Origin: an uncultured Clostridia bacterium
Lineage (GTDB): Bacteria > Bacillota > Clostridia > Oscillospirales > Ruminococcaceae
Direction of reading: 5' to 3'
NCBI GenBank assembly: GCA_937899435.1
Contig: CALBQG010000027.1
Span: 4,139 to 68,138 of the forward strand
Length of the DNA stretch: 64,000 bases
A program made the translations under genes and the position numbers. This document shows, piece after piece, positions 7,460 through 63,925 of the stretch. How positions within the stretch are numbered: the first letter of the stretch is position 1; the number at the start of each line of letters is the position of its first letter. Under the pieces are notes generated by a model. The model worked only from the letters and a program-made list of their open reading frames with translations. It had not been told where the DNA came from and ran no database searches.

Positions 7460-8227
7460 ATGAAAATTGCAGTTATCACCGGCGCCAGCTCCGGCATGGG
7501 ACGGGATTTTGCCCGACAGCTGGATCAAACGGGAAACTACGAACAGCTTTGGGTGATCGCACGCCGCGAAGAACGGCTGCTGACGCTGAAGGAAGAACTG
7601 AAAACACCGGTGAAGGTGTTTCCGATGGATCTGACAAAGCAGGAGGATCTGGAGCGCTATGCCGCCGAACTGGAAAAAGAAAAACCGCAGGTGTTGACCT
7701 TGGTCAACGCCGGCGGCTTCGGAAAATTCGGCAGAGTGGAGCAGATTCCGCTGTCCGATTGCATGGGAATGATCGATGTGAACTGTAAAGCATTGGTCAG
7801 TATGACACAGCTGACCTTGCCGTATATGGAGCGGGGCAGTGCGGTGATCGAGCTGGGGTCGCTGTCGGCGTTCCAGCCGGTGCCGTATCTGAATGTCTAC
7901 GCGGCAAGCAAGGCATTTGTTCTCAGCTATTCCCGCGCGCTGAACGTGGAGCTGAAACCGCGGGGAATCCGTGTGATGGCGGTGTGTCCGGGTTGGGTGA
8001 AAACGGAGTTTTTCGACCGTGCGACAAAAACCAGCAACGATGCCGTTACGTACTACAACGTGTTCTCCGAATCGGCGGATGTGGTGCGCACGGCACTGCG
8101 CGACCTCAAACGCGGAAAAGATGTGTCGGTGCATAACTTCCGTGTGCGTGCGCAGGTACGGCTGGTCAAACTGCTGCCGCACAAATGGGTCATGAACATC
8201 TGGATGAAACAGCAAAAGCACGGTTAA
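7460..8227 (+). CDS. SDR family short-chain oxidoreductase
   Basis: TGASSGMG dinucleotide motif, NAGG, and YAASK catalytic motif. Confidence 0.85.
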   Translation: MKIAVITGASSGMGRDFARQLDQTGNYEQLWVIARREERLLTLKEELKTPVKVFPMDLTKQEDLERYAAELEKEKPQVLTLVNAGGFGKFGRVEQIPLSDCMGMIDVNCKALVSMTQLTLPYMERGSAVIELGSLSAFQPVPYLNVYAASKAFVLSYSRALNVELKPRGIRVMAVCPGWVKTEFFDRATKTSNDAVTYYNVFSESADVVRTALRDLKRGKDVSVHNFRVRAQVRLVKLLPHKWVMNIWMKQQKHG

Positions 8228-9057
8228 TCGCCGCTTCTTTCACGCCGCGCGACTTTTCGGAAGTCGCGCGGCGTGACGCCGTATTTGCGGCGGAAAAGAC
8301 GGGAAAAATAGTTCGGGTCGTCAAAGGAACACGCTGCGGCAATTTTTCGGATTCCGTCCCCCGTGCTGCGCAGCAGCTGCGCGGCGTGCGAAAGGCGCAG
8401 GTCGCGAAGGTGCTCGGTGACCGTCATGCCGACGTCGGCACGGAATTTGCGGCAGAAAGCCGCTTCGGTGTAGCCGAACGTCTGCGCAAGTCCGCGGCAG
8501 GTCAGCGGCTGCGAAAGGTTTTCTTCCATATACAGGAGGATCCGCTGCGAAAATTCGTCGTCGGTCAGCACGGGAAAACGGTTTTCGGGCGCGTCGGCAT
8601 ACCGCGACATCAGCGTGCCGATCAGCAGATAGAGAAACCCCGTCACGGTCTGCACGTTGGAATCAGGACTTCTGAACGCTTCGGAAAGATGATCCAACAG
8701 GGAAGCAAGCCCGGGATCACGAATGCAGTGACGCAATTGAGACAATTGCTGAAAGGAGAAACCGAACAGATCGGTGTCGAACATGAATACGCGGTAGGAA
8801 ACGCCTTCGTCGCCCGCAGTGCCTTCGTGACAACAACGCGGAGGAAAAACCACGGTGTCGCCGTTTTCGGCGGCATAGGAAATGCCGTCCACAACAAAAT
8901 TCATGCTTCCGCGGTCGATCCGCAGAATCTCCATGCGTTCGTGCCAGTGATTGTGAAAACAGGGGCGGTTTGCCTCGGGCGAAAAGGACAAAATCCGCAG
9001 TCCTTTTTTTCCGTAAATCACGGGAGTGAGCTCTTTTAAATAGTACGCCTGTGCCAT
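8224..9057 (-). CDS. AraC family transcriptional regulator (cupin sensor plus HTH)
   Basis: N-terminal cupin-like half and C-terminal AraC double HTH (FGYTEAAFCRKFRADVGMTVTEHL ... DPNYFSRLFRRKYGVTPRDF). I chose the ATG at 9057 because GAGGG lies 5 nt upstream. The tracked ORF extends to 9075. Confidence 0.85.
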   Translation of the reverse strand: MAQAYYLKELTPVIYGKKGLRILSFSPEANRPCFHNHWHERMEILRIDRGSMNFVVDGISYAAENGDTVVFPPRCCHEGTAGDEGVSYRVFMFDTDLFGFSFQQLSQLRHCIRDPGLASLLDHLSEAFRSPDSNVQTVTGFLYLLIGTLMSRYADAPENRFPVLTDDEFSQRILLYMEENLSQPLTCRGLAQTFGYTEAAFCRKFRADVGMTVTEHLRDLRLSHAAQLLRSTGDGIRKIAAACSFDDPNYFSRLFRRKYGVTPRDFRKVARRERSGD

Positions 9058-9152
9058 AGTACCCTCACAAGACAAAAATGTGCGAAAATATGTTAAAATC
9101 GTGCTATTTCATTATACAGCATCTGTTATAATAAAGTCAAGAGGTGAGGCAA

Positions 9153-9995
9153 ATGAAGATTGGCACTTGTGTCCATTTGAAGGAAATTTCCGAAATGGAA
9201 AAAGTCTTTGCCACCATGCAGAAACAGGGCTTTGACAACTGTCAGCTGATCTGCTGGGAACTTTCCCGCTATACCCGGGAAACGGCACAGGCAATTCTGA
9301 AACTGACAAAAACCTACGGTGTGGAAATCTCGGCGGTCTGGTGCGGCTGGAGCGGTCCGGCAAAGTGGAACTTTTACGAAGGTCCGCTGACACTGGGGCT
9401 GGTTCCGTCGGCGTACCGCGAACAGCGTGTGCGCGACCTTTGCAGAGGAAGCGATTTTGCGCGGATGCTCGGTGTGGATCGCGTGGTATCGCATATGGGC
9501 TTCATTCCCGAAGATCCCAATGATGCCCAATTCAAACCGTTCTGCGAAGCGGTGAAAAAGGTTGCCGACCACGCGAAAGAAAACGGACAGTATCTGATGT
9601 TTGAAACGGGACAGGAAACCCCCGTGACGATGCTGCGCTGTTTTGAAACGGCAGGCTGCGATAACCTGCGGGTGAACCTCGATACGGCAAACGTGATTCT
9701 GTACGGCAAAGCCAATCCCGCGGATGCGCTGGATGTGTTCGGAAAATGGGTGGCAGGCGTACATATGAAGGACGGCTTGTATCCGACCAACGGACACGAC
9801 CTCGGTCATGAGGTGCGCATCGGGGACGGAAAGTGCGATTTCGGAAAAGTGCTGCGCAAACTCAAGGCTCTCGGTTACAACGAACCGCTGACAATTGAAC
9901 GTGAAATCGGCGGCGAACAGCAAAATGTCGATATCCTGTATGCACGGGATTATCTGCAAAAAATTCTGAATGAAATGGCGGAGGAAGAAAAATGA
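9153..9995 (+). CDS. Sugar phosphate isomerase/epimerase (xylose isomerase-like TIM barrel)
   Basis: TIM-barrel family pattern (MFETGQE, NLDTANV, HMKD, IERE metal ligand contexts). The ATG at 9153 follows AGAGGTGAGG. Confidence 0.75.
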   Translation: MKIGTCVHLKEISEMEKVFATMQKQGFDNCQLICWELSRYTRETAQAILKLTKTYGVEISAVWCGWSGPAKWNFYEGPLTLGLVPSAYREQRVRDLCRGSDFARMLGVDRVVSHMGFIPEDPNDAQFKPFCEAVKKVADHAKENGQYLMFETGQETPVTMLRCFETAGCDNLRVNLDTANVILYGKANPADALDVFGKWVAGVHMKDGLYPTNGHDLGHEVRIGDGKCDFGKVLRKLKALGYNEPLTIEREIGGEQQNVDILYARDYLQKILNEMAEEEK

Positions 9996-10936
9996 AAGTA
10001 GCAATTGTAGGCTGCGGCGGAATTTCGCATGCGCATTTCAACAGCTGGAGACGCATGGAGGATGTCACGATCGTGGGCGTGTGCGATGTGCGTCCGGAAT
10101 GTATGACAGAGTATGTAAACGCTTGTAAAGCTCATCCGTATGAGGATTGCAGAACCATGCTGGAGACGGAGAAACCTGATATTCTGGATATCTGCCTGCC
10201 GACGTATCTTCATGTCGAATACTCGTTGATGGCTCTGGAAATGGGCATCAACGTTGTCTGCGAAAAGCCGATCTCGCTCAAGAGAGAGGACGTTGCCCGT
10301 GTCTACGGCACGGCAAAGAAACACAACTGCAAATTCATGGTGGCACAGGTGCTTCGTTTCTGGCCGGAATTTTCGGAGTTGAAGGAAATTATCGAGACCG
10401 AGCGCTACGGAAAGCTCCTCAGCGGTGAAATGCACCGTTTGGGATACCGCCCGAATTGGAGCTGGAACGGCTGGATGACCAAAAAGGAACTCAGCGGTAT
10501 GGTGCCGTATGACCTGCACATTCATGATCTGGACTGGCTTGTATATGCGCTGGGAGTTCCGAAGAGTGCGGTGCGTTACCGCACGGAACGTCCCGATCAG
10601 GATTTCCTGCACGCCGTGTATGATTACGGAGACTATTTCATCATGTGCGATTCTTCCTGGTTCAAGGGAAAGATTCCGTGGAACAGCGGCTTCCGCTTCC
10701 AGTTTGAAGAAGCGGTTGTGATCAATAACAACGGCAGCCTGGCAGTGTACGACAAGGACGGTACGGCACAGGAGGGAGTGGCAGCCGCCGATTCCGGTGT
10801 GCTGAATCTGCCGACCACCGATGCGTATTATAATGAACTGCGCTATTTCGCGGATTGCGTCAAAGAAAATCGCGATCCCGACCGCGTAAAGCCCGAAGAA
10901 CTGGAAACCGTCATTGATTTGCTGAACGCGTTTTAA
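9992..10936 (+). CDS. Gfo/Idh/MocA family oxidoreductase
   Basis: N-terminal Rossmann motif KVAIVGCGGISHAH and EKP motif (VVCEKPISL). Overlaps the upstream gene by 4 nt. Confidence 0.85.
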   Translation: MKVAIVGCGGISHAHFNSWRRMEDVTIVGVCDVRPECMTEYVNACKAHPYEDCRTMLETEKPDILDICLPTYLHVEYSLMALEMGINVVCEKPISLKREDVARVYGTAKKHNCKFMVAQVLRFWPEFSELKEIIETERYGKLLSGEMHRLGYRPNWSWNGWMTKKELSGMVPYDLHIHDLDWLVYALGVPKSAVRYRTERPDQDFLHAVYDYGDYFIMCDSSWFKGKIPWNSGFRFQFEEAVVINNNGSLAVYDKDGTAQEGVAAADSGVLNLPTTDAYYNELRYFADCVKENRDPDRVKPEELETVIDLLNAF

Positions 10937-10973
10937 TCAAAATCCTCCGCAGAAATTTCTGCGGAGGATTTTT

Positions 10974-11876
10974 CTATGCTTCCAGTGAAATGCCGGTGTA
11001 ATAGTGCTTGAGAATTTCGTCAAAGGTCATTCCTTGGCGGGCGTAAAAATCGGCACCGTACAGACTCAGCCCCACAAAATGTCCCTGCCCGTAACAGCGG
11101 ATTTCCGCCTGCTGTCCGTCGAAAACAATGTCAAAATCGGCGCTCGGCAGTTGAAAGAGCGCGCGGAATTCCTGCCCAGTCATCGTGAGATTGCCGATTT
11201 CGATCCCTTTGACCGTTCCCGCATCGGTGCGGCTGAGAATTTCGGCGGAGAGGTTTTCCAGCTCCGCTTTCGGGAAACGGGAAAGCACGACTTCACGGAA
11301 GCGGTCGGCGGAAAAGCACAGACGGTTTTCGGTAGCAGGAGCCAGTAAATCGCCCGCGCTTTCTGCGGATTGCAGATAGGCGACCTTTTGCCCCCATACG
11401 GCTTCTGCGGCTTCGGTCTGCCCCGCACAGAGGAAGAAAAAGGGCGCGAGGATCGGACGGTTCTGATACACCATGTATTTTGAACCGACCGCATCCACGG
11501 CTTGTTCGATCTTTTTTCGATAGGCTTCATAGCGGTCGCCGAAACGCTCGCGGGCTTGCGATTCGCTCAGATATCGGTCGGTGTCGATGATGAAATCGTA
11601 AGTCTGCAAATCGGGCTTGCGGCTGCGGTCATAGCACGCGTTGGTGTGGGCAATGACCGCCTGCGCTTTCAACGCTTCCGTGTGAAATCCCGGCTCGGTT
11701 TGTGCAAATACGGCGCCGATGAGAAAATCCCGCGTGGAAAGCGACAGGTCTTTCTGCGAGGAAGCGTCGCGCACAATCCATTCATCGTCCGTGCGTCCGG
11801 TGCTGCGGGAAAGAAGCCGCGGAAGAAAGGTGACAGCGAGCAAAAGGGTGAGATAAAGGCAGAGAATCTTTTTCAT
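10974..11876 (-). CDS. spoIID: SpoIID/LytB-domain protein (stage II sporulation protein D-like)
   Basis: N-terminal anchor, ALKAQAVIAHTNA motif, and C-terminal GHFVGLSLYGA and ILKHYYTG typical of SpoIID. Confidence 0.8.
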   Translation of the reverse strand: MKKILCLYLTLLLAVTFLPRLLSRSTGRTDDEWIVRDASSQKDLSLSTRDFLIGAVFAQTEPGFHTEALKAQAVIAHTNACYDRSRKPDLQTYDFIIDTDRYLSESQARERFGDRYEAYRKKIEQAVDAVGSKYMVYQNRPILAPFFFLCAGQTEAAEAVWGQKVAYLQSAESAGDLLAPATENRLCFSADRFREVVLSRFPKAELENLSAEILSRTDAGTVKGIEIGNLTMTGQEFRALFQLPSADFDIVFDGQQAEIRCYGQGHFVGLSLYGADFYARQGMTFDEILKHYYTGISLEA

Positions 11877-11995
11877 TTTTCCTCCGTAATGAATTTTAGA
11901 CGTTTGAAAAATTCATTTTTGAATAAAATTTCGGACATAATGGCAAAATATCCCGTAAATTTTGCTGTTTTTTACAAAAAATCATGCAAATGCCC

Positions 11996-12024
11996 TTGAC
12001 GTGCGCCGCCTACCGATGTATAAT
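11996..12024 (+). promoter_or_regulatory. Sigma-A promoter upstream of citrate synthase
   Basis: TTGACG, a 17-nt spacer, then TATAAT. Confidence 0.6.
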
Positions 12025-12057
12025 AAATAAGTATCATGATTCATGGGGTGGCGACGT

Positions 12058-13440
12058 ATGGAGTATTGTGCTTCAATGGCAAGTATGTCCGATGAAGACA
12101 AAAAAGGTATTAAAATACTATGTGACGAGTTTCACAAGTATAACCATATCGATTCAAAATATTACGAACGGTATGACGTGAAGCGCGGATTGCGTAACGC
12201 GGACGGTACCGGTGTGGTCGCGGGGCTGACACAGATCTGTAACGTACACGGATATATTATGGATGAGGGCGAGAAAAGTGCCGTTGACGGTCAGCTTTTC
12301 TATCGCGGAATCGATGTAAAGGACATCGTGAACGGCTGCCTGAAAGAAAATCGTTACGGTTATGAGGAGGTCGTCTGGCTGTTGCTGTTCGGTCGTCTGC
12401 CGAACAAAGAACAGCTCTCGCTTCTGCGGAATATGATTTCGGAGTGCCGCGAACTGCCTTTCGGCTTTGCGGAAGATATGATGATCAAAGCGCCGACGCC
12501 GAATATCATGAGCATGATTGAACGCTCGATTGTGGCACTGTATGCCTACGATGAGGATGCGGAAAACCTCAGCGTGGAAAATCTGATCCGTCAGTCGATC
12601 GAACTGATTGCGCGCGTCCCCACGATTTTGGTGCATGCTTATCAGATCAAAAAGAGAATTTACAATCACCAGAGCATGGTGTTTCATCCGATTGACCCGA
12701 CCCACAGCACCGCACAGCATATTCTTTCGATGATCCGCGACGATCGCACATTCACCGAAGATGAGGCGCATTTGCTGGATATCTGCCTGATGCTTCACGC
12801 GGAGCACGGCGGCGGAAACAATTCCACCTTTGCCTGCCGTGTGCTGTCGTCGTCGGGAACGGATACCTATTCTGCAATTGCCGCCGGTGTCGGTGCGCTG
12901 AAAGGACCGAAACACGGCGGAGCAAACCTGAAAACCATGGAAATGCTTAACTTCATGATGCGGGATATCGAACATTGGGACCGCGATGCGGAAGTGGAAG
13001 CATATCTGCGGAAACTGCTCAATAAAGAGGCAGGAGACCATTCAGGCTTGATCTACGGTTTGGGTCACGCGGTGTATACCAAGAGCGATCCCCGTGCCGT
13101 CATCATCAAGCAAAACGCAATGAAACTGGCACAAAAACGCGGTTTTGAGCGGGAATTTCTGCTGCTGGACGCCGTGGAGCGGATTGCCCCGCGCCTGATT
13201 GCCGAAAAGACCAGTGCCAAGGAAGAAGATATCTGTGCAAACGTAGATCTGTATTCGGGCATGGTGTATAAGATGATCAATATTCCGCAGGATCTGTTCA
13301 CGCCGCTCTTTGCCATTGCGCGTATGGCAGGTTGGTGCGCACACCGTATCGAAGAAGTGACCAACGCCAACCGTATTATACGCCCGGCGTATAAGGCAAT
13401 CGTCAAAAACACACCGTATGTGCCGATGAACGAGAGATAA
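12058..13440 (+). CDS. Citrate synthase
   Basis: Motifs HAEHGGGNNSTF, GPKHGGAN and GLGHAVYTKSDPRA. The start is uncertain: the tracked ORF begins at 12043, and I chose 12058 because GGGGTGG lies 6 nt upstream. Confidence 0.88.
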   Translation: MEYCASMASMSDEDKKGIKILCDEFHKYNHIDSKYYERYDVKRGLRNADGTGVVAGLTQICNVHGYIMDEGEKSAVDGQLFYRGIDVKDIVNGCLKENRYGYEEVVWLLLFGRLPNKEQLSLLRNMISECRELPFGFAEDMMIKAPTPNIMSMIERSIVALYAYDEDAENLSVENLIRQSIELIARVPTILVHAYQIKKRIYNHQSMVFHPIDPTHSTAQHILSMIRDDRTFTEDEAHLLDICLMLHAEHGGGNNSTFACRVLSSSGTDTYSAIAAGVGALKGPKHGGANLKTMEMLNFMMRDIEHWDRDAEVEAYLRKLLNKEAGDHSGLIYGLGHAVYTKSDPRAVIIKQNAMKLAQKRGFEREFLLLDAVERIAPRLIAEKTSAKEEDICANVDLYSGMVYKMINIPQDLFTPLFAIARMAGWCAHRIEEVTNANRIIRPAYKAIVKNTPYVPMNER

Positions 13441-45616: not shown

Positions 45617-47350
45617 TTAGTCGTCTTTGTACACGAACTCGTGGATTATGCCGTTTTTGAAGGTTATAGACCGGATTTTGCCGTTTTCGATACAAAAGTT
45701 GGAGCTTACCGAATTTATAAAATCCTTCAGTATTCGAGGGTCTGTCTCCTCCAAAAGCCGCCTGTAATTGACGAACCTTTTGTCCGTGAGCTTCTGACTC
45801 ATGATGAAGTAGCTTGCCTTCGCCATCAGCTCGTCGTCACTTATCGAGAACTGCGAAGTCAGCCCCTCGGAGAGTTCATCGAGACGAGCGTTGACCTTTT
45901 CGAGCTGCTCGTCGAGCTGCTTCTTCTCGATGATGTAGTCCTTCTCTGCCATGTCCTCCTCCGAGTACAGGTAGAGCGATTTGAGGCGGGATAACGCCCT
46001 TTCTATCCTACGCCGCTCCGATAATAGGATGTCACGTTCCGAGCTGTTATCCGCGTCCTCCTCGCCTGTGGGCTTGGGCGTATACTTTATGCCGGACACC
46101 TGAGACTTGTAGAGGGAGTACAGCTCCATCAGCCCATGCTCCTTGATACACGCGACGTTCTCGAACATCTCACCACGCAGCAGTTTCTTCTGGAGCGTTT
46201 CAGGCGAGGTCGTCTTTCCGAAGCTCTCCTTTGCCTTTATGAGGTTGGCGATGTAGTTGAGGACAAACGGACCGAGTGTGGTGTCGGTGATATACTTGTT
46301 CGGGCAGCCGCTGTTTTTGCGGTGGCTCATACAAGCATAGATTGACGGTCGATAGCCGCCCTTCAGCTCTCTACAGTTGCTGGTCGCGCTCATATTGGCT
46401 CCGCAGCATCCGCAGGTCAGCAATCCGGCGAACACATGAATGTTCTTCCGGCTGTAGGTCTTGCCTGATGCGTTCCAGCCTCGCTGATTGCGTTCGAGAG
46501 TCAAAACGACGTTCCTCCACCTTTCCTTCGGCACGATAGCCGGATGATGTTCCTCCACGATGACCCATTCGCTCTCTGGTTTGATGTCCTGACGACTGCC
46601 GCGCTTTGACATATCGAAGTAGTTGTAGCGGTACGCGCCCGTGTAGAACATATTCTTCAGGATGATGCTGACCGCTGTCGGCGACCACTCTTTGCCGCTG
46701 CGAGGATGTATTCCAGCGGCGTTCAGTGTCTTTGCGACGTAAAGAAGCGAGTGGCGTTCTTCGTACATATCGTACATTCTCAGAACGACCTTCGCTTCCT
46801 CCTCAACGATGGAGAAAGTCTCGGTATCTTTGTCCCAACTGTAGCCATACGGCACTCTGCCGCCGTTCCATTGACCGTTTCCGGCTCTGGCGACCATGAC
46901 CGCCGTTACTCGCTCCGCTGTCATCTTCCGTTCCAGTTCCGCAAACACGAGAATGATTTTGAGCATCGCCTCGCCCATCGCAGAGGACGTGTCGAATTGC
47001 TCGTTCTTGGAGACGAATGTGACTCCCAGCTTCTTCAGCTCGTCGTACATGGCGGCGAAGTCGAGAAGATTTCTGCTGATACGGTCCAGCTTCCACACAA
47101 GAATATGCGTGAACTCACCAGACCTGACCCGCGACATCATTTTCTGATAGTCGGGGCGGTCGGGGTTCTTCGCGGTATAGCCCGCGTCCTCGAACACCTC
47201 GTAGGAGCTTGCGTTCAGCACATACTTCGCGTATGCCGTCAGCTCCTCTTTCTGGACAGGCAAACTGTCCTTGTCGATTTGGTAGTGTGTAGATACTCGC
47301 ACATAGATAGCAACCCTTATGGAGTTCAACTTATCGGTGAGTTTACTCAT
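45617..47350 (-). CDS. Large serine recombinase (phage integrase)
   Basis: N-terminal resolvase domain (VAIYVRVSTHYQ, DRISRN), a recombinase domain, a Cys-rich zinc ribbon (CGCCGANMS ... CMSHRKNSGCPNKY) and a coiled-coil tail. Confidence 0.93.
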   Translation of the reverse strand: MSKLTDKLNSIRVAIYVRVSTHYQIDKDSLPVQKEELTAYAKYVLNASSYEVFEDAGYTAKNPDRPDYQKMMSRVRSGEFTHILVWKLDRISRNLLDFAAMYDELKKLGVTFVSKNEQFDTSSAMGEAMLKIILVFAELERKMTAERVTAVMVARAGNGQWNGGRVPYGYSWDKDTETFSIVEEEAKVVLRMYDMYEERHSLLYVAKTLNAAGIHPRSGKEWSPTAVSIILKNMFYTGAYRYNYFDMSKRGSRQDIKPESEWVIVEEHHPAIVPKERWRNVVLTLERNQRGWNASGKTYSRKNIHVFAGLLTCGCCGANMSATSNCRELKGGYRPSIYACMSHRKNSGCPNKYITDTTLGPFVLNYIANLIKAKESFGKTTSPETLQKKLLRGEMFENVACIKEHGLMELYSLYKSQVSGIKYTPKPTGEEDADNSSERDILLSERRRIERALSRLKSLYLYSEEDMAEKDYIIEKKQLDEQLEKVNARLDELSEGLTSQFSISDDELMAKASYFIMSQKLTDKRFVNYRRLLEETDPRILKDFINSVSSNFCIENGKIRSITFKNGIIHEFVYKDD

Positions 47351-47479: not shown

Positions 47480-47857
47480 TTATCCGGCGTTGGAGTTCTC
47501 TTCTTCTTGCTTCCCTTGCGATACGAATGTTTTTTCCTCTGGCGTGAGGTAGGTGTCAAGAACGCTCCAGATGATGTTCTTGTGGTCGTCGTCAGCCCTG
47601 CGGAAAGCATTAGCAAGGATAACGATGTCTTTGTCCGGCTCGACATAAGGTGTCGGGCTGAGTGAAAGGTCCATGATGTAGTCGATGGACACATTCAGAG
47701 CCTTAGCTATACGAGCCACGATTTCGAGATTCGGCTTGTGGACTCCGGCGACGTAGCGCGAAATAGTCGCTTCCGTCGTTCCGGCTTTCTCCGCGAGCCA
47801 TGCCTGCGAGATGCCTTTTGACTCAATAATGTCTCTGAGTCTGGTTGAAAAATCTGC
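47480..47857 (-). CDS. XRE family repressor (CI-like)
   Basis: HTH motif (FSTRLRDIIESKGISQAWLAEKAGTTEATISRYVAG). The ATG at 47857 follows AGGAGG. It is divergent from a cro-like gene. Confidence 0.85.
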   Translation of the reverse strand, partial: ADFSTRLRDIIESKGISQAWLAEKAGTTEATISRYVAGVHKPNLEIVARIAKALNVSIDYIMDLSLSPTPYVEPDKDIVILANAFRRADDDHKNIIWSVLDTYLTPEEKTFVSQGKQEEENSNAG

Positions 47858-47882
47858 CATAGTGATTACCTCCTGTGCAAGT

Positions 47883-47911
47883 ATTATACCACACACTTAC
47901 GATTTTTACAA
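47883..47911 (-). promoter_or_regulatory. Leftward promoter of the repressor gene
   Basis: On the minus strand: TTGTAA, a 17-nt spacer, then TATAAT with a TGn extension. Confidence 0.6.
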
Positions 47912-57950: not shown

Positions 57951-58388
57951 ATGAGAGAGTTTGTAATCCCTATCAAAGTACATGACGCGGAGCTTCCCGT
58001 CCCTGAACACAAGTCGTGGGGCGACTGGGTTGACCTGCGAGCTGCCGAGACAGTTGAGATGAAGCAGGGCGAGTTCCGTATCATTTCACTCGGCGTAAGC
58101 ATGAGACTCCCGAACGGCTACGAGGCTAACGTCGTTCCGAGAAGCTCGACCTTCAAGAACTTCGGAGTTCTGATGGCAAATAGTTTCGGAGTAATTGACA
58201 ACAACTACTGCGGCAATGACGATGTGTGGGGCTTCCCTGCGATTGCGATGAGAGACACCGTAATCAATAAGGGCGACCGTATCGCACAGTTCCGTATCGT
58301 ACAACGTCAGCCGAAGCTGGTTTTCGCGAAGGTCGATGACCTGAACAGCAAAAACAGAGGCGGTTTCGGTTCTACCGGCATTAAGTGA
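57951..58388 (+). CDS. dut: dUTP diphosphatase
   Basis: GVIDNNYCG, DRIAQ and a C-terminal RGGFGSTG. The ATG at 57951 follows GAGGAGG. The tracked ORF begins upstream at 57738. Confidence 0.88.
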   Translation: MREFVIPIKVHDAELPVPEHKSWGDWVDLRAAETVEMKQGEFRIISLGVSMRLPNGYEANVVPRSSTFKNFGVLMANSFGVIDNNYCGNDDVWGFPAIAMRDTVINKGDRIAQFRIVQRQPKLVFAKVDDLNSKNRGGFGSTGIK

Positions 58389-58399
58389 GGAGGACGAAC

Positions 58400-58687
58400 G
58401 TGAACGAAATCAAACGAGTACCCGAAAAAGTCAGCGGTGTGAAGGACGGCGTACAGCTCGATGCCAAATGCGTCCACACACGGTTCTTCAAGGACAGGAT
58501 GAAGCAAACGACCGCGCCATGCACTTTGATGGCAAGCTGGGAAAACGGTGTTCTGTCAATCAACTTCACAGTCGAAGGAAAGCGTCAGTCGGTCGGTGTA
58601 AGGCTTGATGAAACGATTATGCTCTTGCAGGAGGCAAACGCCGCCAGAATTGAAGCCGAGGAGCGCGGCAAGGTTGCGGAACAGTAA
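58400..58687 (+). CDS. Hypothetical protein in the antitoxin position upstream of mazF
   Basis: The GTG at 58400 follows GAGGAGG. There is no recognisable AbrB/MazE fold. At most, a weak beta-strand/helix (RHH-like) segment KRQSVGVRLDETIMLLQEANAA lies at the C-terminus. Confidence 0.45.
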   Translation: MNEIKRVPEKVSGVKDGVQLDAKCVHTRFFKDRMKQTTAPCTLMASWENGVLSINFTVEGKRQSVGVRLDETIMLLQEANAARIEAEERGKVAEQ

Positions 58688-59036
58688 TCTCCAACCGCGA
58701 CGGGGCGATATTTTCTTCGCTGACCTCAGCGATGCCGGAAACGGCTCCAAGAGAGGGTATCGTCCCGTCATAATCCTCCAGAACAACAAGGGCAACGCGA
58801 ACAGCGGCAGCGTAATCGTTGCGACCATCACAAGCGTCACAAAAAGACCGCTCCCCACACACGTCCGGCTCGGACAACAGCACGGCTTGAAAAAGCCCAG
58901 CACGGCGGTCTTGGAGGACATCCTTACAATCGACAAAAGGTATCTGTCGAACTATCTCGGAACGGTAATCAATACCGATGCCGAGAAGCAGCTCGATAAG
59001 GCGATATGCGTAAGTTTAGGTCTCAGAACACCATAA
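58674..59036 (+). CDS. mazF: MazF/PemK family endoribonuclease toxin
   Basis: RRGDIFFADLS ... GYRPVIILQNN.GN ... VIVATITS ... LPTHV ... VLEDILTIDK is collinear with B. subtilis MazF (NdoA). A TTG start at 58674 is proposed. The tracked ORF begins at 58605. Confidence 0.8.
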   Translation: MRNSNLQPRRGDIFFADLSDAGNGSKRGYRPVIILQNNKGNANSGSVIVATITSVTKRPLPTHVRLGQQHGLKKPSTAVLEDILTIDKRYLSNYLGTVINTDAEKQLDKAICVSLGLRTP

Positions 59037-59134: not shown

Positions 59135-59701
59135 ATGGCTAAAAGCGAAAACTCAGAGAGCGCGACCATAACGGGCGCACAACTCAAAAAAATCACAGAG
59201 ACGGCTTCTCTGGTAGCGATAGAAGCGTATCGGAAAGAAGTCGAGAGGGAGAGAGTGGAGAACCGCGACAAGCGGCTCTACAATACCCGGCTCCTTATGG
59301 AAAAGTATCGCGGCATGGTGAAATACGCCGAAGATGCCGTATATGAGGCGCGTCAGCTCGACGATGATTTTGAACTGCAAGCACTCGTCGAAATGATGAG
59401 TACGGGCAAAGACAGCTATTCACTGTCAGTCGAGTCTATTCAGGAGCGTGTAGGCAAGGTCAGAGTCATCCTCGACCACGTTACGAAAATGTTGGACTTC
59501 TACCATCATCGCTGCGAAATGTCCGGCAAACAGGAAATCATGCGGAAGTGGGACACAATCCGCTATCTGTACCTCGACGAGGATGAAAAGACCGTACAAG
59601 ACCTCGCGGAGATGTACTATGTGGACGAGCGGACTGTCTACAGGTACAATCGCGCCGCGTTGCAGGACCTCAGCGCGTTGTTCTTCGGTTGGGTAGATTA
59701 A
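59135..59701 (+). CDS. Putative phage late-gene transcriptional regulator (sigma-70 region-4-like HTH, ArpU/RinA-like position)
   Basis: C-terminal TVQDLAEMYYVDERTVYRYNRAALQDL resembles a region 4.2 HTH. It sits at the early/late boundary. Confidence 0.4.
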   Translation: MAKSENSESATITGAQLKKITETASLVAIEAYRKEVERERVENRDKRLYNTRLLMEKYRGMVKYAEDAVYEARQLDDDFELQALVEMMSTGKDSYSLSVESIQERVGKVRVILDHVTKMLDFYHHRCEMSGKQEIMRKWDTIRYLYLDEDEKTVQDLAEMYYVDERTVYRYNRAALQDLSALFFGWVD

Positions 59702-59743
59702 AGCCCTGAAAGGCGATGGGAGACCACCGCCTTTCTCTATGCC

Positions 59744-60487
59744 TCAGATGAGCTTCGGGCAGTCTGCCTTGACCGGACACTGTTCGCAGTCCGGCGAGAG
59801 CGGATGACAATATTCTCTGCCTATCCTCCAGCAAGCGGCATCAATAATACCCGGAAACTCAGGATTCAGCTCCCGCGCTTTATAGATGATTTCATCCCGC
59901 GACGCTCCTCCCTCGACCAGCCCCGTCCTCTGGAAGATGCGGAATACATGAACGTCAGGAGATACGTCTATCGAGTAGTAGTCGGAGAACGGTACGCCAA
60001 ACTGACGCGAAAGTATGTTCGCCGCCATATTCGCAATCTTCACTCCAACCCCGTCAAACTCAAGGAAACGAAATACGACGGCTGCGCTGCTCGGACTGTT
60101 AGCCCAAATTCGAGAAGCGTCGCCGTCGTACTTGTTCTTTATGCGAAGAACTGCCTTGTAGAAAATCTCAGCCATCGTGTCGTTGTATCGGTGAAGTGTC
60201 TGCTCGGTGAATATTCGCCTGTATTCCTCTAAAGGAACCGATGCCAGCTCGTCAATCGAGAACTCTCTGTAGAGGTTCCGGATGACGCAGGGGATTCGCC
60301 ATGCCCTGTCGGATGCTATCTGCCTGTCCATACAACACGCGAGGACGAAGGCGTGTGGATAGTTGTCAAGGTCGGTGAGAAGCGCGTTCTCGGCGGTGTT
60401 TTCGAGGAAGCGAACCTCAGATATGGAAAGCTCCTCGTTGACTTTGCGGCTGTATTCGACCAGCCAATGTGCGGTTTTCATTTTCAA
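59744..60487 (-). CDS. Endonuclease III-like HhH-GPD superfamily protein with a 4Fe-4S cluster loop
   Basis: HhH element FDGVGVKIANMAANIL, catalytic-Asp context SPDVHVFRIFQRTGL, and an exact C-X6-C-X2-C-X5-C motif (CHPLSPDCEQCPVKADC). It is on the opposite strand to all neighbouring phage genes. Confidence 0.75.
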   Translation of the reverse strand: MKMKTAHWLVEYSRKVNEELSISEVRFLENTAENALLTDLDNYPHAFVLACCMDRQIASDRAWRIPCVIRNLYREFSIDELASVPLEEYRRIFTEQTLHRYNDTMAEIFYKAVLRIKNKYDGDASRIWANSPSSAAVVFRFLEFDGVGVKIANMAANILSRQFGVPFSDYYSIDVSPDVHVFRIFQRTGLVEGGASRDEIIYKARELNPEFPGIIDAACWRIGREYCHPLSPDCEQCPVKADCPKLI

Positions 60488-60528
60488 AAACTCCTTTTTG
60501 CTATAGATTTGCCTTATAATTATACCAG

Positions 60529-60537
60529 AAATCAGGT
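60529..60537 (-). promoter_or_regulatory. Extended -10 (TGgTATAAT) promoter element for the glycosylase-like gene
   Basis: On the minus strand, TGGTATAAT lies about 40 nt upstream of the ATG, with AAGGAG as RBS. The -35 is weak. Confidence 0.45.
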
Positions 60538-60604
60538 TACGAGTGTGAAATCTTACACTATTGATAAAAAGTCGCGAAAAATTACCGCTGTCAAAAATCT
60601 GTCA

Positions 60605-60634
60605 TTGACTTGTCAATATGGGCTGTGGTATAAT
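60605..60634 (+). promoter_or_regulatory. Promoter upstream of the ParB-like/DpdA-like operon
   Basis: TTGACT, an 18-nt spacer, then TATAAT with a TGn extension. Confidence 0.55.
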
Positions 60635-60660
60635 GTATGCTGAAAATATTATGTAGGCGC

Positions 60661-60695
60661 GGAGACGGATTTTTTGTCCGTCTCTTTTCTTTTTG
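60661..60695 (+). terminator. Intrinsic terminator located within the leader, about 25 nt downstream of the promoter
   Basis: Stem ggagacgga / tccgtctc(t), a 7-nt loop, then ttttctttttg. The U-run is present only in the plus orientation. Confidence 0.65.
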
Positions 60696-60754
60696 CCTCG
60701 ATATTACCGTTTCGCAAGAACGTGGTGAGAATAATCATAACAGAAAGGCGTGAA

Positions 60755-61234
60755 ATGATGGAAATTATCGCAATGCCAATCGGCGACATCGTTGCGTACA
60801 AGAACAATCCTCGTATCAACGACAAGGCGGTCGAGCCTGTAGCCGAGAGCATCAAGGAGTTCGGGTTCAAGGTTCCCATCCTGCTCGACAAAGACAACGT
60901 AATCATCGCCGGACACACGAGGCTGAAAGCCGCAAAGCAGCTTGGTATGAAGGAAGTCCCCTGCATCCGCTGCGAGGACCTGACCCCTGAACAGGTCAAG
61001 GCGTTCCGGCTCGCCGACAATAAGGTCGCGGAGTTCGCGGACTGGGACCTTGCAGCCCTGAACATCGAACTTGGCGACATACAGATGGACATGGAAAAGT
61101 TCGGTTTCTTCGAGCTTCCTGAAATCGACATTGACGACTACCTGAAAGATAAACAGGATAAGCCCGCCGATGAGGAAAAGGAACCGGAACGCATCCAGTG
61201 TCCACATTGCGGCGAATGGTTTGATTTGCCATGA
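60755..61234 (+). CDS. ParB N-terminal (ParB/Srx-like nuclease) domain protein with a C-terminal zinc ribbon
   Basis: DIVAYKNNPR ... VPILLDKDNVIIAGHTRLKAA ... the ParB-box pattern, and a C-terminal CPHCGEW. The ATG at 60755 was chosen, and the stop overlaps the next ATG (ATGA). Confidence 0.75.
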   Translation: MMEIIAMPIGDIVAYKNNPRINDKAVEPVAESIKEFGFKVPILLDKDNVIIAGHTRLKAAKQLGMKEVPCIRCEDLTPEQVKAFRLADNKVAEFADWDLAALNIELGDIQMDMEKFGFFELPEIDIDDYLKDKQDKPADEEKEPERIQCPHCGEWFDLP

Positions 61235-61986
61235 GGCTCTACCTCGCCGGAGTAGAACAGCGGACCGAGCAGTTCAAGGAGGCAAAACCTCCTTACATTC
61301 TGTTTTCCTTCGCAGCCTGTCAGGGAGGCGGCAAGAAGCAGGAAAAGATTATGGACTGCGTGAGAAGTCCGTGGTGTAAAGACTTCCTCTGCGACAGCGG
61401 AGCGTTCACCTTCTTCTCGAAGGGACACTCAAAAACGCTGGAGGAGTGGGACAGATACGTCGATGAGTATATCGACTTCATCAACACCTACGACGTTCAT
61501 CACTTCTTCGAGCTTGACATCGACCGGATAGTCGGGCTGGAGAAGGTCGAGGAGTTTCGCAGGAAAATCGAAAAGCGCACAGGAAAGCAAAGCATCCCAG
61601 TCTGGCACAGCAACCGAGGCTGGGCGTACTTTGAACGGATGTGCGCCGAATACAGCTACGTCTCTATCGGCGGTATCGCGAAGAACCCGAACGGCAAGGC
61701 GATTGAGAAAATCTTCCCGTGGTTCATCGAACACGCCCACAAGACCGGAACACAGATACACGGTCTGGGCTACACCGATACGAAGAAGCTGAAATTATAT
61801 CCGTTCGACTCCGTTGACTCCACCTCGTGGAGCAGCGGTTCTCGATATGGCGTGTCCTTCGAGTACAAGGGTCATGCGATGTGCGGAAAGAAGAACATCT
61901 ACCCCGACAAACGAATCGACGGACAGATGCTCGACATCCACAACCTGAAAGTATGGACTCAGTACGCGAAGTCACTCGACCACTAA
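61231..61986 (+). CDS. dpdA: DpdA-like TGT-superfamily transglycosylase (candidate DNA 7-deazaguanine inserting enzyme)
   Basis: Three TGT-family signature contexts in order: LCDSGAFTF (compare DSGGFQ), YVSIGGIA (compare AIGGL) and PFDSVDSTSW (compare FDCV / archaeal FDSASY). No C-terminal zinc motif. It is clustered with queC, a queF-like gene and yhhQ. Confidence 0.65.
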   Translation: MRLYLAGVEQRTEQFKEAKPPYILFSFAACQGGGKKQEKIMDCVRSPWCKDFLCDSGAFTFFSKGHSKTLEEWDRYVDEYIDFINTYDVHHFFELDIDRIVGLEKVEEFRRKIEKRTGKQSIPVWHSNRGWAYFERMCAEYSYVSIGGIAKNPNGKAIEKIFPWFIEHAHKTGTQIHGLGYTDTKKLKLYPFDSVDSTSWSSGSRYGVSFEYKGHAMCGKKNIYPDKRIDGQMLDIHNLKVWTQYAKSLDH

Positions 61987-62011
61987 AACGCACGAAAGGA
62001 GGAGAAAACCT

Positions 62012-62323
62012 ATGAGAACCTACTCCAATGATAAGGGCATCAGCCGAATGAAGTTCACTGCGCCCGCCACGGTGTTCTGCCCACTCGGACCGAACTACTA
62101 CAGGGCGATGGTGACTTGCGAGCTGGAGCTTGGCGAGAGAATCGTTGACTTCCTCGACCTTGAAGCCTATTTCAAAAGAGACCTCAATGGGAAGGAGCTT
62201 ACTACCGAGAACCTTTGTAACGAAGTGTTCCAAACGCTGAAAAACGTTTACGAGCCGAAACACATCAGGGTCACGGTAATGAGCGACAGCCATTTCCCGA
62301 TTGAGACAATCAAAGAAGCCTGA
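62012..62323 (+). CDS. QueF-like T-fold protein (single domain, divergent motif)
   Basis: Collinear with B. subtilis QueF around the catalytic Cys: VFCPLG vs SLCPKTG; IVDFLDLEAYFKR vs MVESKSLKLYLFSFR; ENLCNEVF vs EDCMNII; EPKHIRV vs DPRYIEV. The QPD and E-S-K-S-L-K residues are not conserved. Confidence 0.55.
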   Translation: MRTYSNDKGISRMKFTAPATVFCPLGPNYYRAMVTCELELGERIVDFLDLEAYFKRDLNGKELTTENLCNEVFQTLKNVYEPKHIRVTVMSDSHFPIETIKEA

Positions 62324-62353
62324 GAAAACCTCTTGAAAGGAGAAAACCTCACT

Positions 62354-63061
62354 ATGGAAAACAAAACCGCAGTCGTACTTCTCAGCGGAGGTATCGACAG
62401 CACGACCTGCCTTGCGTTGGCGGTTGACGAGTATGGCACAAACAATGTCGTCGCCCTCAATATGCTTTATGGGCAGAAACACGATAAGGAAATCGAGAGC
62501 GCAAAGGCGGTAGCCGCGTACTACGGTATTCCTTACTACGAGATGGACATGAGCTGTGTCATGGCATACAGCGACTGCCCGCTTCTAAAACATAGCCACA
62601 AAGAAATCAAGCACATGAGCTACGGCGAACAGCTCAAAGAACTCGGCGGCGAAGGGACTGTTGACACATACGTTCCTTTCCGCAACGGACTTTTCCTCTC
62701 TGCCGCCACCGCGTTTGCAATCAGCATGAACGCCCACTACGTCTATTATGGCGCACACGCCGACGACGCGGCTGGTCACGCCTATCCCGACTGCTCTATG
62801 GCATTCGCGGACTACATGAACAAAGCCATCAAGGAAGGCTCTGGCGGCACGGTGCAGCTCAAAGCACCGCTCATTGACCTGTCCAAGTCTGGCGTAGTGA
62901 GGCTGGGGCTTCAGTTGAAAGCTCCGTATCACCTCACATGGTCCTGCTACGAGGGCGGCGATAAGCCCTGCGGAAAATGCGGAACCTGCATTGACCGTGC
63001 AAAGGCGTTTGCCGCGAACGGAGTAGACGACCCCGCCGAGAGGAGGGACGACAATGAATAA
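62354..63061 (+). CDS. queC: 7-cyano-7-deazaguanine (preQ0) synthase
   Basis: PP-loop VVLLSGGIDSTT and C-terminal zinc motif C..(x)..CGKCGTC. The ATG at 62354 follows AAAGGAGAA. Confidence 0.9.
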   Translation: MENKTAVVLLSGGIDSTTCLALAVDEYGTNNVVALNMLYGQKHDKEIESAKAVAAYYGIPYYEMDMSCVMAYSDCPLLKHSHKEIKHMSYGEQLKELGGEGTVDTYVPFRNGLFLSAATAFAISMNAHYVYYGAHADDAAGHAYPDCSMAFADYMNKAIKEGSGGTVQLKAPLIDLSKSGVVRLGLQLKAPYHLTWSCYEGGDKPCGKCGTCIDRAKAFAANGVDDPAERRDDNE

Positions 63062-63716
63062 AAGAACTCCCTTGAAAAACGAACGCTACAGTTTCGTGCA
63101 GGTGCTTCTGACGGTCATTTCAGTCTCCTGTCTGCTCATCGCGAACGTCATCACATCGAAACAGGTGCAGTTCCCGTTTGGAATTACCATGACGGGGGCT
63201 GTTTTCATTTTCCCTGTGACCTACATTCTCAGCGATGTGTTCTCTGAGGTGTACGGCTACCGCTGGAGTCGCATTACCTGCTACATCGGCTTCGCGATGA
63301 ACGCTGTCATGGCGATTATGTTCGAGCTGGTCATCGCTACCCCTGCCCCGTCCTACTGGGGGAATCAGGAGGCGTTCGCCACCGTACTCGGAAACGCACC
63401 GAGAGTGTTGATTGCGTCCCTCGCGGCGTTCGTCATCGGCGACCTTGCGAACGACCTCGTGTTCCAGAAGATGAAGGAGAAACACAAGGACGAGATTAAA
63501 GGCTTCGGATGGAGAGCAATCATCTCCAGCTTCTTCGGCGAACTTGCCGACAGCCTCATCTTCATCCCCATCGCCTTCTTGGGGCAGCTCCCGTTCGAGA
63601 AGCTGGTTCAGATGCTCGTCGTTCAGGTACTGCTGAAAACCGCATACGAACTCGTCATCCTGCCTGTCACAACGCTCGTCGTAAAAGCGGTTGACCGCTA
63701 CGAGCGAGGTGTGTGA
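63054..63716 (+). CDS. yhhQ: Queuosine precursor transporter (YhhQ/DUF165 family)
   Basis: Polytopic membrane protein with ANVITSKQV ... FIFPVTYILSDVFSEVYGY and the family-typical C-terminal half. Overlaps queC by 8 nt. Confidence 0.8.
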   Translation: MNKRTPLKNERYSFVQVLLTVISVSCLLIANVITSKQVQFPFGITMTGAVFIFPVTYILSDVFSEVYGYRWSRITCYIGFAMNAVMAIMFELVIATPAPSYWGNQEAFATVLGNAPRVLIASLAAFVIGDLANDLVFQKMKEKHKDEIKGFGWRAIISSFFGELADSLIFIPIAFLGQLPFEKLVQMLVVQVLLKTAYELVILPVTTLVVKAVDRYERGV

Positions 63717-63718
63717 GC

Positions 63719-63925
63719 ATGGAGATTTTGGGTATAGCCGGAACGCTGTTCATCATCGTGGCGTTCGCCATGAACGGAGAGAGGAAAATCAGAATATTCG
63801 ACCTGATAGGCGCACTGCTGTTCATAGCATACGGCATAACGATATGCTCATTCAGCACCGTGCTGCTGAACGCTGTGCTTGTTGTGGTTCAGGCGTACAA
63901 ACTTCTAAGGAGGAAGTCTGACTGA
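63719..63925 (+). CDS. Small hydrophobic membrane protein (two to three predicted TM segments)
   Basis: The 68-aa ORF starts immediately after the yhhQ stop (an alternative GTG at 63713 would overlap it). No motif recognised. Confidence 0.45.
   Translation: MEILGIAGTLFIIVAFAMNGERKIRIFDLIGALLFIAYGITICSFSTVLLNAVLVVVQAYKLLRRKSD

Follow-up and report, generated by a model that had tools for sequence, protein, structure and literature searches.

The window analysed here is a stretch of 64,000 nucleotides from an uncultured Clostridia bacterium of the Ruminococcaceae (GenBank assembly GCA_937899435.1, contig CALBQG010000027.1, positions 4,139 to 68,138 of the forward strand), part of which is a prophage. 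On the minus strand of this prophage, at 59744..60481, lies a gene whose product has the helix-hairpin-helix (HhH) motif, the catalytic residues and the [4Fe-4S] loop of the endonuclease III (EndoIII) superfamily. The gene sits in a self-contained cassette that is missing from a related phage, and its product belongs to a large, mobile protein family. An operon with ParB, DpdA, QueC and YhhQ genes (60755..63925, +) lies next to it, a position that appears to reflect the site of insertion and not an obligatory partnership. We favour, at about even confidence, the interpretation that the protein is a stand-alone, competent EndoIII-type glycosylase and apurinic/apyrimidinic (AP) lyase that attacks foreign, chiefly phage, DNA in a modification-dependent way and that the prophage carries as a moron.

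The glycosylase and its gene

An earlier interpretation of this DNA, made without database searches (the sequence-only reading), had described a minus-strand open reading frame (ORF) at 59744..60487 as encoding probably an active DNA glycosylase or a DNA-scanning protein, and the ORF is confirmed in the window sequence. We take as the likely start the ATG at 60481, which lies two codons after the initial TTG, because a ribosome-binding site, AAGGAG, can be read from the sequence 9 nt upstream (60491..60496, -) and because homologues begin with MKT or MKxEHWLV. The coding sequence ends with the stop codon at 59744-59746, and the product has 245 residues.

The elements of the active site and cluster that had been predicted are all found. 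The protein contains the HhH sequence GVGVKIAN, the string PDVHVFRIFQRTG that the sequence-only reading had quoted as the context of the catalytic aspartate, and a cluster loop, C225-X6-C232-X2-C235-X5-C241, with exactly the expected spacing. In a HMMER alignment to the EndoIII structures 1p59 and 1orn, GVGVKIAN and PDVH line up with the EndoIII motifs, K148 aligns with the nucleophilic (Schiff-base) lysine, and D176 aligns with the catalytic aspartate. K148 thus corresponds to K120 of EndoIII, the lysine typical of bifunctional enzymes. K148, D176, G144, G146 and all four cysteines are invariant in 87 of 87 full-length relatives. The Pfam model of the Fe-S loop, PF10576, scores 17.9 bits, slightly below its cutoff of 20.5. 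An AlphaFold2 model built from 28 homologues has a mean pLDDT of 93.2, and its top Foldseek matches are EndoIII (1orn, 1p59, 2abk), MutY and the Deinococcus EndoIII paralogues, with E values from 3e-7 (1orn and 1p59) to 1e-4. With its motifs, lysine nucleophile, Fe-S loop and two-domain all-alpha fold, the protein is a member of the HhH-GPD/EndoIII superfamily, and the invariance of its catalytic and cluster residues suggests that it is probably active, as had been proposed.

The protein shares with EndoIII (Nth) and MutY the fold, a GVGxK hairpin with the lysine, the catalytic aspartate and the C-X6-C-X2-C-X5-C loop, and Q54 is the equivalent of their intercalating glutamine. It is only about 20% identical to them, however, and differs in having a 40-residue N-terminal extension and an invariant insert of about seven residues before the catalytic aspartate. 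This insert, within the sequence SDYYSIDxSPD between the HhH motif and the aspartate, is specific to the family and suggests a substrate pocket unlike that of Nth.

Distribution of the family

The protein does not belong to the housekeeping Nth or MutY proteins: its score is 21.5 bits with the nth equivalog model TIGR01083 (cutoff 211.7) and 15.7 bits with the mutY equivalog model TIGR01084 (cutoff 286.5), and its family occurs sporadically across phyla on mobile DNA, whereas Nth and MutY are universal. The best match at the family level is TIGR03252, an uncharacterised HhH-GPD base excision repair family (3e-15, residues 38-163). The protein falls outside that family too: it reaches 56.3 bits where 136.5 are required, over model positions 14-141 of 189 only, and the alignment stops before the catalytic-aspartate and Fe-S parts of the protein.

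A word-indexed search placed 1,149 proteins in the family at E<=1e-3. An exhaustive search of clusters at 50% identity gave at least 417 at E<=1e-30 and 1,055 at 1e-10. In a pattern scan covering 185,579 species genomes, 230 stretches turned out to encode relatives; they lie in the Bacillota, Bacteroidota, Planctomycetota, Spirochaetota, Fibrobacterota, several proteobacterial classes and one archaeon. Some sources label family members "endonuclease III". The relatives from the pattern scan remain 50-60% identical to the window protein, and this level of identity over a sporadic, cross-phylum distribution indicates an accessory gene that spreads horizontally and is strongly constrained. No family member was found among the plasmids in PLSDB.

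An accessory cassette in a prophage

The region is confirmed as a prophage by a large serine recombinase gene (45617-47350, -), a CI-like repressor gene (47480-47896, -) that forms a helix-turn-helix (HTH) pair with a Cro-like gene, and genes for RecT, a DnaC-like loader, RusA, SSB and MazF. An HNH endonuclease and a PHROG 1558 protein are also encoded. Over the roughly 16 kb that separate the CI-like repressor gene from the window's end, the glycosylase gene is the sole convincing gene on the minus strand, a longer distance than the about 12 kb claimed earlier. The gene converges on that of the PHROG 1558 protein (59135..59701, +; 1.8e-42), a presumed late regulator that is syntenic in all members of this phage lineage.

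The signals that the sequence-only reading had assigned to the gene were also recovered. An extended -10 element, TGgTATAAT, lies at 60519..60527 (-). Our two-hexamer promoter scan did not call this promoter (60527-60519) because its -35 element is weak; in the aligned relatives from the lineage, however, a TATAAT is kept, equally far from the start codon. Between the converging genes, at 59708..59735, is a hairpin resembling a bidirectional terminator, with folding energies of -25.3 kcal/mol (z = -4.1) for the minus-strand RNA and -18 kcal/mol (z = -3.2) for the plus-strand RNA. On both strands it is more stable than 200 of 200 shuffled sequences.

Terminator, gene and promoter together form an accessory cassette of about 886 bp (59702..60587) that is absent from the related phage L104. 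The homology of L104 to the window ends at the stop codon of the late-regulator gene (59701) and restarts at about 60588, at TGTCAAAAA..TGTCATTGACTTGTC, and the junctions are clean. The late regulator, ParB and two DpdA paralogues are all present in L104, as are the late promoter and hairpin found in the window, but the glycosylase is not; the cassette is therefore a discrete unit with which the DpdA genes can dispense. The cassette has its own promoter and terminator, the opposite orientation to its surroundings and a presence/absence polymorphism among related phages, and is thus a moron, which bears out the moron-like layout described earlier. From its own promoter we infer that it may be expressed in the lysogen.

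A possible role in defence

The genomic contexts of the family were surveyed by tallying immediate neighbours at 62 dereplicated loci lacking DpdA, counted as neighbour proteins per Pfam family. The commonest were ResIII (5), ADP-ribosylglycohydrolase (4), SWI2/SNF2 (3), HsdR_N (3) and Helicase_C (3), followed by cytosine methylase, Macro, Eco57I, phospholipase D (PLD), Zeta toxin, terminase and resolvase with two each. Some of the neighbours are flagged by PADLOC as type I restriction enzymes, and several as methyltransferases. Single family members adjoin a type I HsdR, an Eco57I-type enzyme, an MmeI-type enzyme, an MZB-domain helicase and an NB-ARC STAND protein, and a PLD/NgoFVII-like nuclease directly adjoins a family member in two unrelated loci (L017 and L045). 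At eleven loci in the Bacillota (L003, L007-L015 and L023) the family gene lies beside large serine recombinases, and a second phage lineage, described below, carries it as well.

Fusions point in the same direction. In P0126 (L108, 217-4997) the Fe-S HhH domain of the family stands at the N-terminus, joined to MrcB_N and an AAA_5 GTPase of the McrB type; the gene downstream encodes McrC (DUF2357 and PDDEXK_7). The catalytic lysine of P0126 is replaced by asparagine while the aspartate is kept, and this protein may be a derivative that acts only as a sensor. In P0146 the family domain occurs together with DUF4357, which is listed as one of the common fusion partners of McrB homologues.

Two recently described groups of proteins provide precedents. 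Dag1-Dag17 are HhH-superfamily glycosylases from Vibrio integron cassettes that protect specifically against phages with 7-deazaguanine-modified DNA; Dag1 appears to be bifunctional, by way of a lysine and an aspartate, and no link by sequence from the Dags to known glycosylases could be made (Getz et al., 10.1101/2025.10.29.685425). Like the window protein they are compact, single-gene HhH glycosylases with catalytic residues, encoded on mobile or sporadically distributed DNA. The window family is set apart from the Dags, as described, in being recognisably EndoIII-like with an Fe-S loop, an Fe-S cluster being unmentioned in the Dag report (10.1101/2025.10.29.685425), and the window protein differs further in being carried by a prophage that probably modifies guanine in its own DNA. 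Two NCBI accessions from the family and the genus names that we tried were not among the rows listed of the Dag supplementary table.

In the END nucleases, which defend against hypermodified phages, an inactivated EndoIII/Ogg domain senses hypermodified bases and is fused to PLD, PD-DExK or McrB-like modules; the paper does not mention an Fe-S loop (PMC12191111). Relatives of the window protein are likewise fused to McrB or found beside PLD/NgoFVII-like nucleases, and P0126 fits the END pattern. The window protein itself does not, being a single-domain protein with K148 and D176 intact. As a stand-alone protein with both catalytic residues, it should be able to cut DNA by itself and not merely sense a base.

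The antiviral glycosylases Brig1 and Brig2 would share the logic of the proposed role, excision of a modified base specific to phage DNA. They have a uracil-DNA glycosylase fold and not an HhH fold, and their targets, modified cytosine or thymidine, are known.

We favour a role in defence because of the restriction-modification, helicase and PLD neighbours, the McrB fusion and the Dag and END precedents. The sequence-only reading had offered, as a fallback, that the glycosylase recognises foreign modified bases, and this is the version that fits the contexts of the family best. The protein would bind DNA through its HhH motif and Fe-S loop and would flip a non-canonical base, one absent from the host chromosome, into a family-specific pocket, for which the SDYYSIDxSPD insert before D176 is the candidate specificity element. 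K148, through a Schiff base, and D176 would then cleave the glycosidic bond, and the abasic site would be nicked by beta-elimination. Densely modified incoming DNA would be fragmented in this way, and unmodified DNA of the host and of the integrated prophage would be spared. An ancestor of the phage lineage could have acquired the moron of about 0.9 kb once, in the interval that separates the late-regulator gene from the late promoter, and the glycosylase made in the lysogen would exclude rival phages with modified DNA.

Several observations weigh against this interpretation. Neither PADLOC nor PHROGs contains a match for the window glycosylase. The GC content of the cassette gene (0.528) is close to that of the prophage (0.522), leaving no compositional trace of a recent acquisition. 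In a second, unrelated phage lineage (L088, L004 and L085-L087), the family gene lies with its own terminator between the large terminase and portal genes, co-oriented with the late genes, an arrangement that does not fit expression limited to the lysogen. Many family members are found among ordinary metabolic genes, and some among housekeeping genes such as gatCAB and a tRNA methyltransferase gene, where a repair role is possible. Finally, the DNA of the carrier phage is itself probably modified with 7-deazaguanine, and sparing it requires an assumed specificity or timing. The target of the glycosylase might be another base, for instance a modified pyrimidine, or the enzyme might discriminate among 7-deazaguanine derivatives or be shut off on induction. 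Modified pyrimidines are the classical substrate class of EndoIII.

If the defence interpretation is correct, a large set of recognisably EndoIII-like, Fe-S proteins would join the newly recognised antiviral DNA glycosylases, and prophages would be among the carriers of such enzymes, in one case a prophage with probably hypermodified DNA of its own. A question that follows is how a modified phage escapes its own modification-dependent weapon. The members with conserved lysine and aspartate and the McrB-fused relative without the lysine would form a natural series from "cutter" to "sensor". Experimental work remains worthwhile because of the size of the family and its presence in a hypermodifying prophage.

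Alternative explanations

Ordinary base excision repair of oxidised pyrimidines by an Nth-like enzyme, spread by mobile elements because it improves repair, would account for the complete EndoIII catalytic apparatus and Fe-S loop, for the members located among housekeeping genes and for the "endonuclease III" labels. We consider it unlikely, given the very low scores against the Nth and MutY models, the sporadic occurrence across phyla, the recurrence beside restriction genes and PLD nucleases, the McrB fusion and the invariant insert, which suggests a different substrate pocket.

A narrower form of the defence interpretation, warfare between phages, seems to us similarly improbable as a specific account. 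Here the glycosylase of the lysogen would excise a hypermodified base of its rivals, perhaps a 7-deazaguanine derivative that differs from the one installed by its own DpdA. The genome of the carrier would escape if its own derivative were not a substrate, or if convergent early transcription silenced the cassette on induction. Such a phage would combine modified DNA with a glycosylase dependent on modification and an inbuilt immunity to it.

The sequence-only reading had proposed a single self/non-self system made up of the glycosylase and the DpdA genes, in which DNA without 7-deazaguanine, or with the wrong derivative, is attacked and the phage's own modification confers immunity. We examined this link from both sides. 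On the glycosylase side, we searched 93 loci with a family member for DpdA, QueC or YhhQ within 10 kb and found at least one of them at 7 loci; about 85 of the 93 had none. A look-up of the contig added an eighth DpdA-linked case, L094. All eight linked loci have the same order of genes: SSB, dUTPase, MazF, PHROG 1558, the glycosylase in antisense orientation, ParB and DpdA. In a neighbour-joining tree the linked glycosylases form one clade, with L055 loosely attached beside it. Shared synteny and a single clade mean that the link to DpdA counts as one evolutionary event. L055, with a glycosylase only 54% identical, was also considered as an independent re-acquisition at the same site, which would speak for functional coupling; it was not counted as such, its place in the tree being beside the lineage clade.

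On the DpdA side, a scan of IMG/VR with an alignment of the DpdA subfamily found relatives on at least 519 contigs, of which the best 80 loci were used. Among these 80 loci the companions of DpdA were ParB (45), QueC (44), YhhQ (36) and the glycosylase (4). When the count is limited to loci flanked by 3 kb or more on each side, the glycosylase is present in 4 of 46, all from the lineage of the window phage, and absent from 42. Within the lineage, the content of modification genes varies independently of the glycosylase, QueC being absent from L094 and L104. None of 50,697 deposited phage genomes in INPHARED, which include known DpdA phages, encodes a family member. Co-occurrence of DpdA and the glycosylase beyond shared descent is not seen, which is essentially the outcome, no co-occurrence beyond chance, that the sequence-only reading had said would refute its proposal.

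What speaks for a self/non-self pair is that the adjacency is kept in members of the lineage whose DpdA is only 49-60% identical (L093 and L094), with or without QueC, and that L055 keeps the position although its glycosylase has diverged and branches slightly apart. HhH enzymes are also able to recognise 7-deazaguanines, as the Dag proteins do (10.1101/2025.10.29.685425), and Qng1 is among the fold matches of the glycosylase. Against these points stand the restriction of the link to one lineage and one clade, the many loci of either gene without the other, and the DpdA genes of L104, which lack a glycosylase beside them. In addition, the glycosylase and DpdA units are divergently transcribed from separate promoters. 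An attack on unmodified incoming DNA is implausible, since most family members stand alone in chromosomes without a modification partner, where an enzyme directed at unmodified DNA would kill the host. A new DpdA-coupled self/non-self system therefore does not hold as a claim, and we regard a pairing of this kind as quite unlikely.

The novelty that had been claimed for such a pairing is also outdated, HhH glycosylases directed against 7-deazaguanine phages having been reported in 2025 (10.1101/2025.10.29.685425). Our literature search found no paper that pairs DpdA with an EndoIII-type enzyme, and a survey of 7-deazaguanine in phages mentions neither glycosylases nor ParB. The bacterial Dpd system combines DpdA, DpdB and DpdC with the restriction proteins DpdD-K, of which the window operon has no homologues, and no conserved co-occurrence of the DpdA subfamily with the glycosylase is seen.

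A very unlikely alternative is counter-defence or quality control, in which the glycosylase would remove adducts installed by the host, such as ADP-ribosyl bases, or misplaced 7-deazaguanine precursors. The ADP-ribosylglycohydrolase and Macro proteins among the commonest immediate neighbours of the family would suit this role, but they occur in few loci and not in the window prophage, and the McrBC, PLD and restriction-modification contexts point to the side of defence.

A Qng1-like salvage hydrolase that frees 7-deazaguanine bases from nucleotides to feed DpdA, as could suit a phage that has no FolE, QueD or QueE and relies on YhhQ and QueC only, was rejected as the principal explanation and seems extremely improbable: the match to Qng1/DUF2419 (7u07, rank 44) is weak (TM-score about 0.5) compared with those to EndoIII and MutY, the HhH motif, the lysine nucleophile and the DNA-binding Fe-S loop point to DNA as the substrate, and other family loci have no queuosine-pathway context.

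The neighbouring operon and other features

The ParB-DpdA/late operon is headed by a near-consensus promoter, TTGACT-18-TGgTATAAT, at 60605-60634 (+), which is followed by a terminator-like hairpin at 60661-60685 (+; -18.9 kcal/mol). This arrangement (60605..60685) is conserved in L104. The -35 element of the promoter lies within a conserved palindrome, TTGACAAGTCAA, in the region 60588-60700, shortly past the PHROG 1558 gene. A promoter with a strong hairpin within about 30 nt resembles pR'-tR' of phage lambda, and by this analogy the PHROG 1558 protein may act as an antiterminator and not as an activator.

The operon encodes, all on the plus strand, a ParB_N protein (60755-61234), a DpdA-like transglycosylase (61231-61986; PHROG 887, 1.3e-50), a 103-residue protein, orf103 (62012-62323), QueC (62333-63061; 1e-58), the preQ0/preQ1 transporter YhhQ/Vut_1 (63054-63716; 2e-43) and a YgjV-like fragment (63713-63925). 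The DpdA-like protein has no match in Pfam, no informative match in the Protein Data Bank and a faint match to the PADLOC DpdA model, so its assignment comes from PHROG 887 and the context. No family or structure match was found for orf103. Judged by family names and context, it is reasonable to conclude that the operon installs 7-deazaguanine in DNA, as the sequence-only reading had predicted. We take the combination of a DpdA-like protein with a ParB-like partner to recall DpdA and DpdB of the bacterial Dpd system.

The modification genes differ among the related phages. L104 (6346-9097) has its two DpdA paralogues in tandem, without QueC, and L094 (7269-9403) has a 319-residue DpdA, also without QueC. 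In L081 (7106-8470), L082 and L084 a second, distant orf103 paralogue follows QueC; the window has no such copy.

Further recurrent fusions of the glycosylase family (P0140, P0259, P0168, P0267 and P0123) include DUF6884 and Sel1 repeats, and many representatives of 350-400 residues have an unannotated N-terminal extension of about 110-150 residues. At the eleven Bacillota loci with serine recombinases, a conserved 133-residue protein with a weak HARE-HTH match is encoded directly upstream of the family gene (about 9490-9890), and the pair may be a unit of two genes carried by an integrative element. At three loci, L034 (7809-8687), L045 (10761-12326) and L073, family members have ADP-ribosylglycohydrolase genes beside them; L073 has one on each side (8225-9928 and 10835-12235) and an Exo_endo_phos gene. 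Macro-domain genes occur in two further neighbours, and some family members may be linked to ADP-ribosylated DNA.

Among the terminase-portal phages, L088 (4130-6495 and 9962-10735) also encodes an apparent S-adenosylmethionine synthetase, judged by its N-terminal sequence, and a 414-residue ParB_N-containing protein that is likely a ParB-methyltransferase. At 58385-59036, the early region of the window prophage includes a MazF/PemK toxin gene (Pfam 3e-21) that is conserved in the lineage, and an ORF of 100 residues that precedes and overlaps this gene is a candidate antitoxin.

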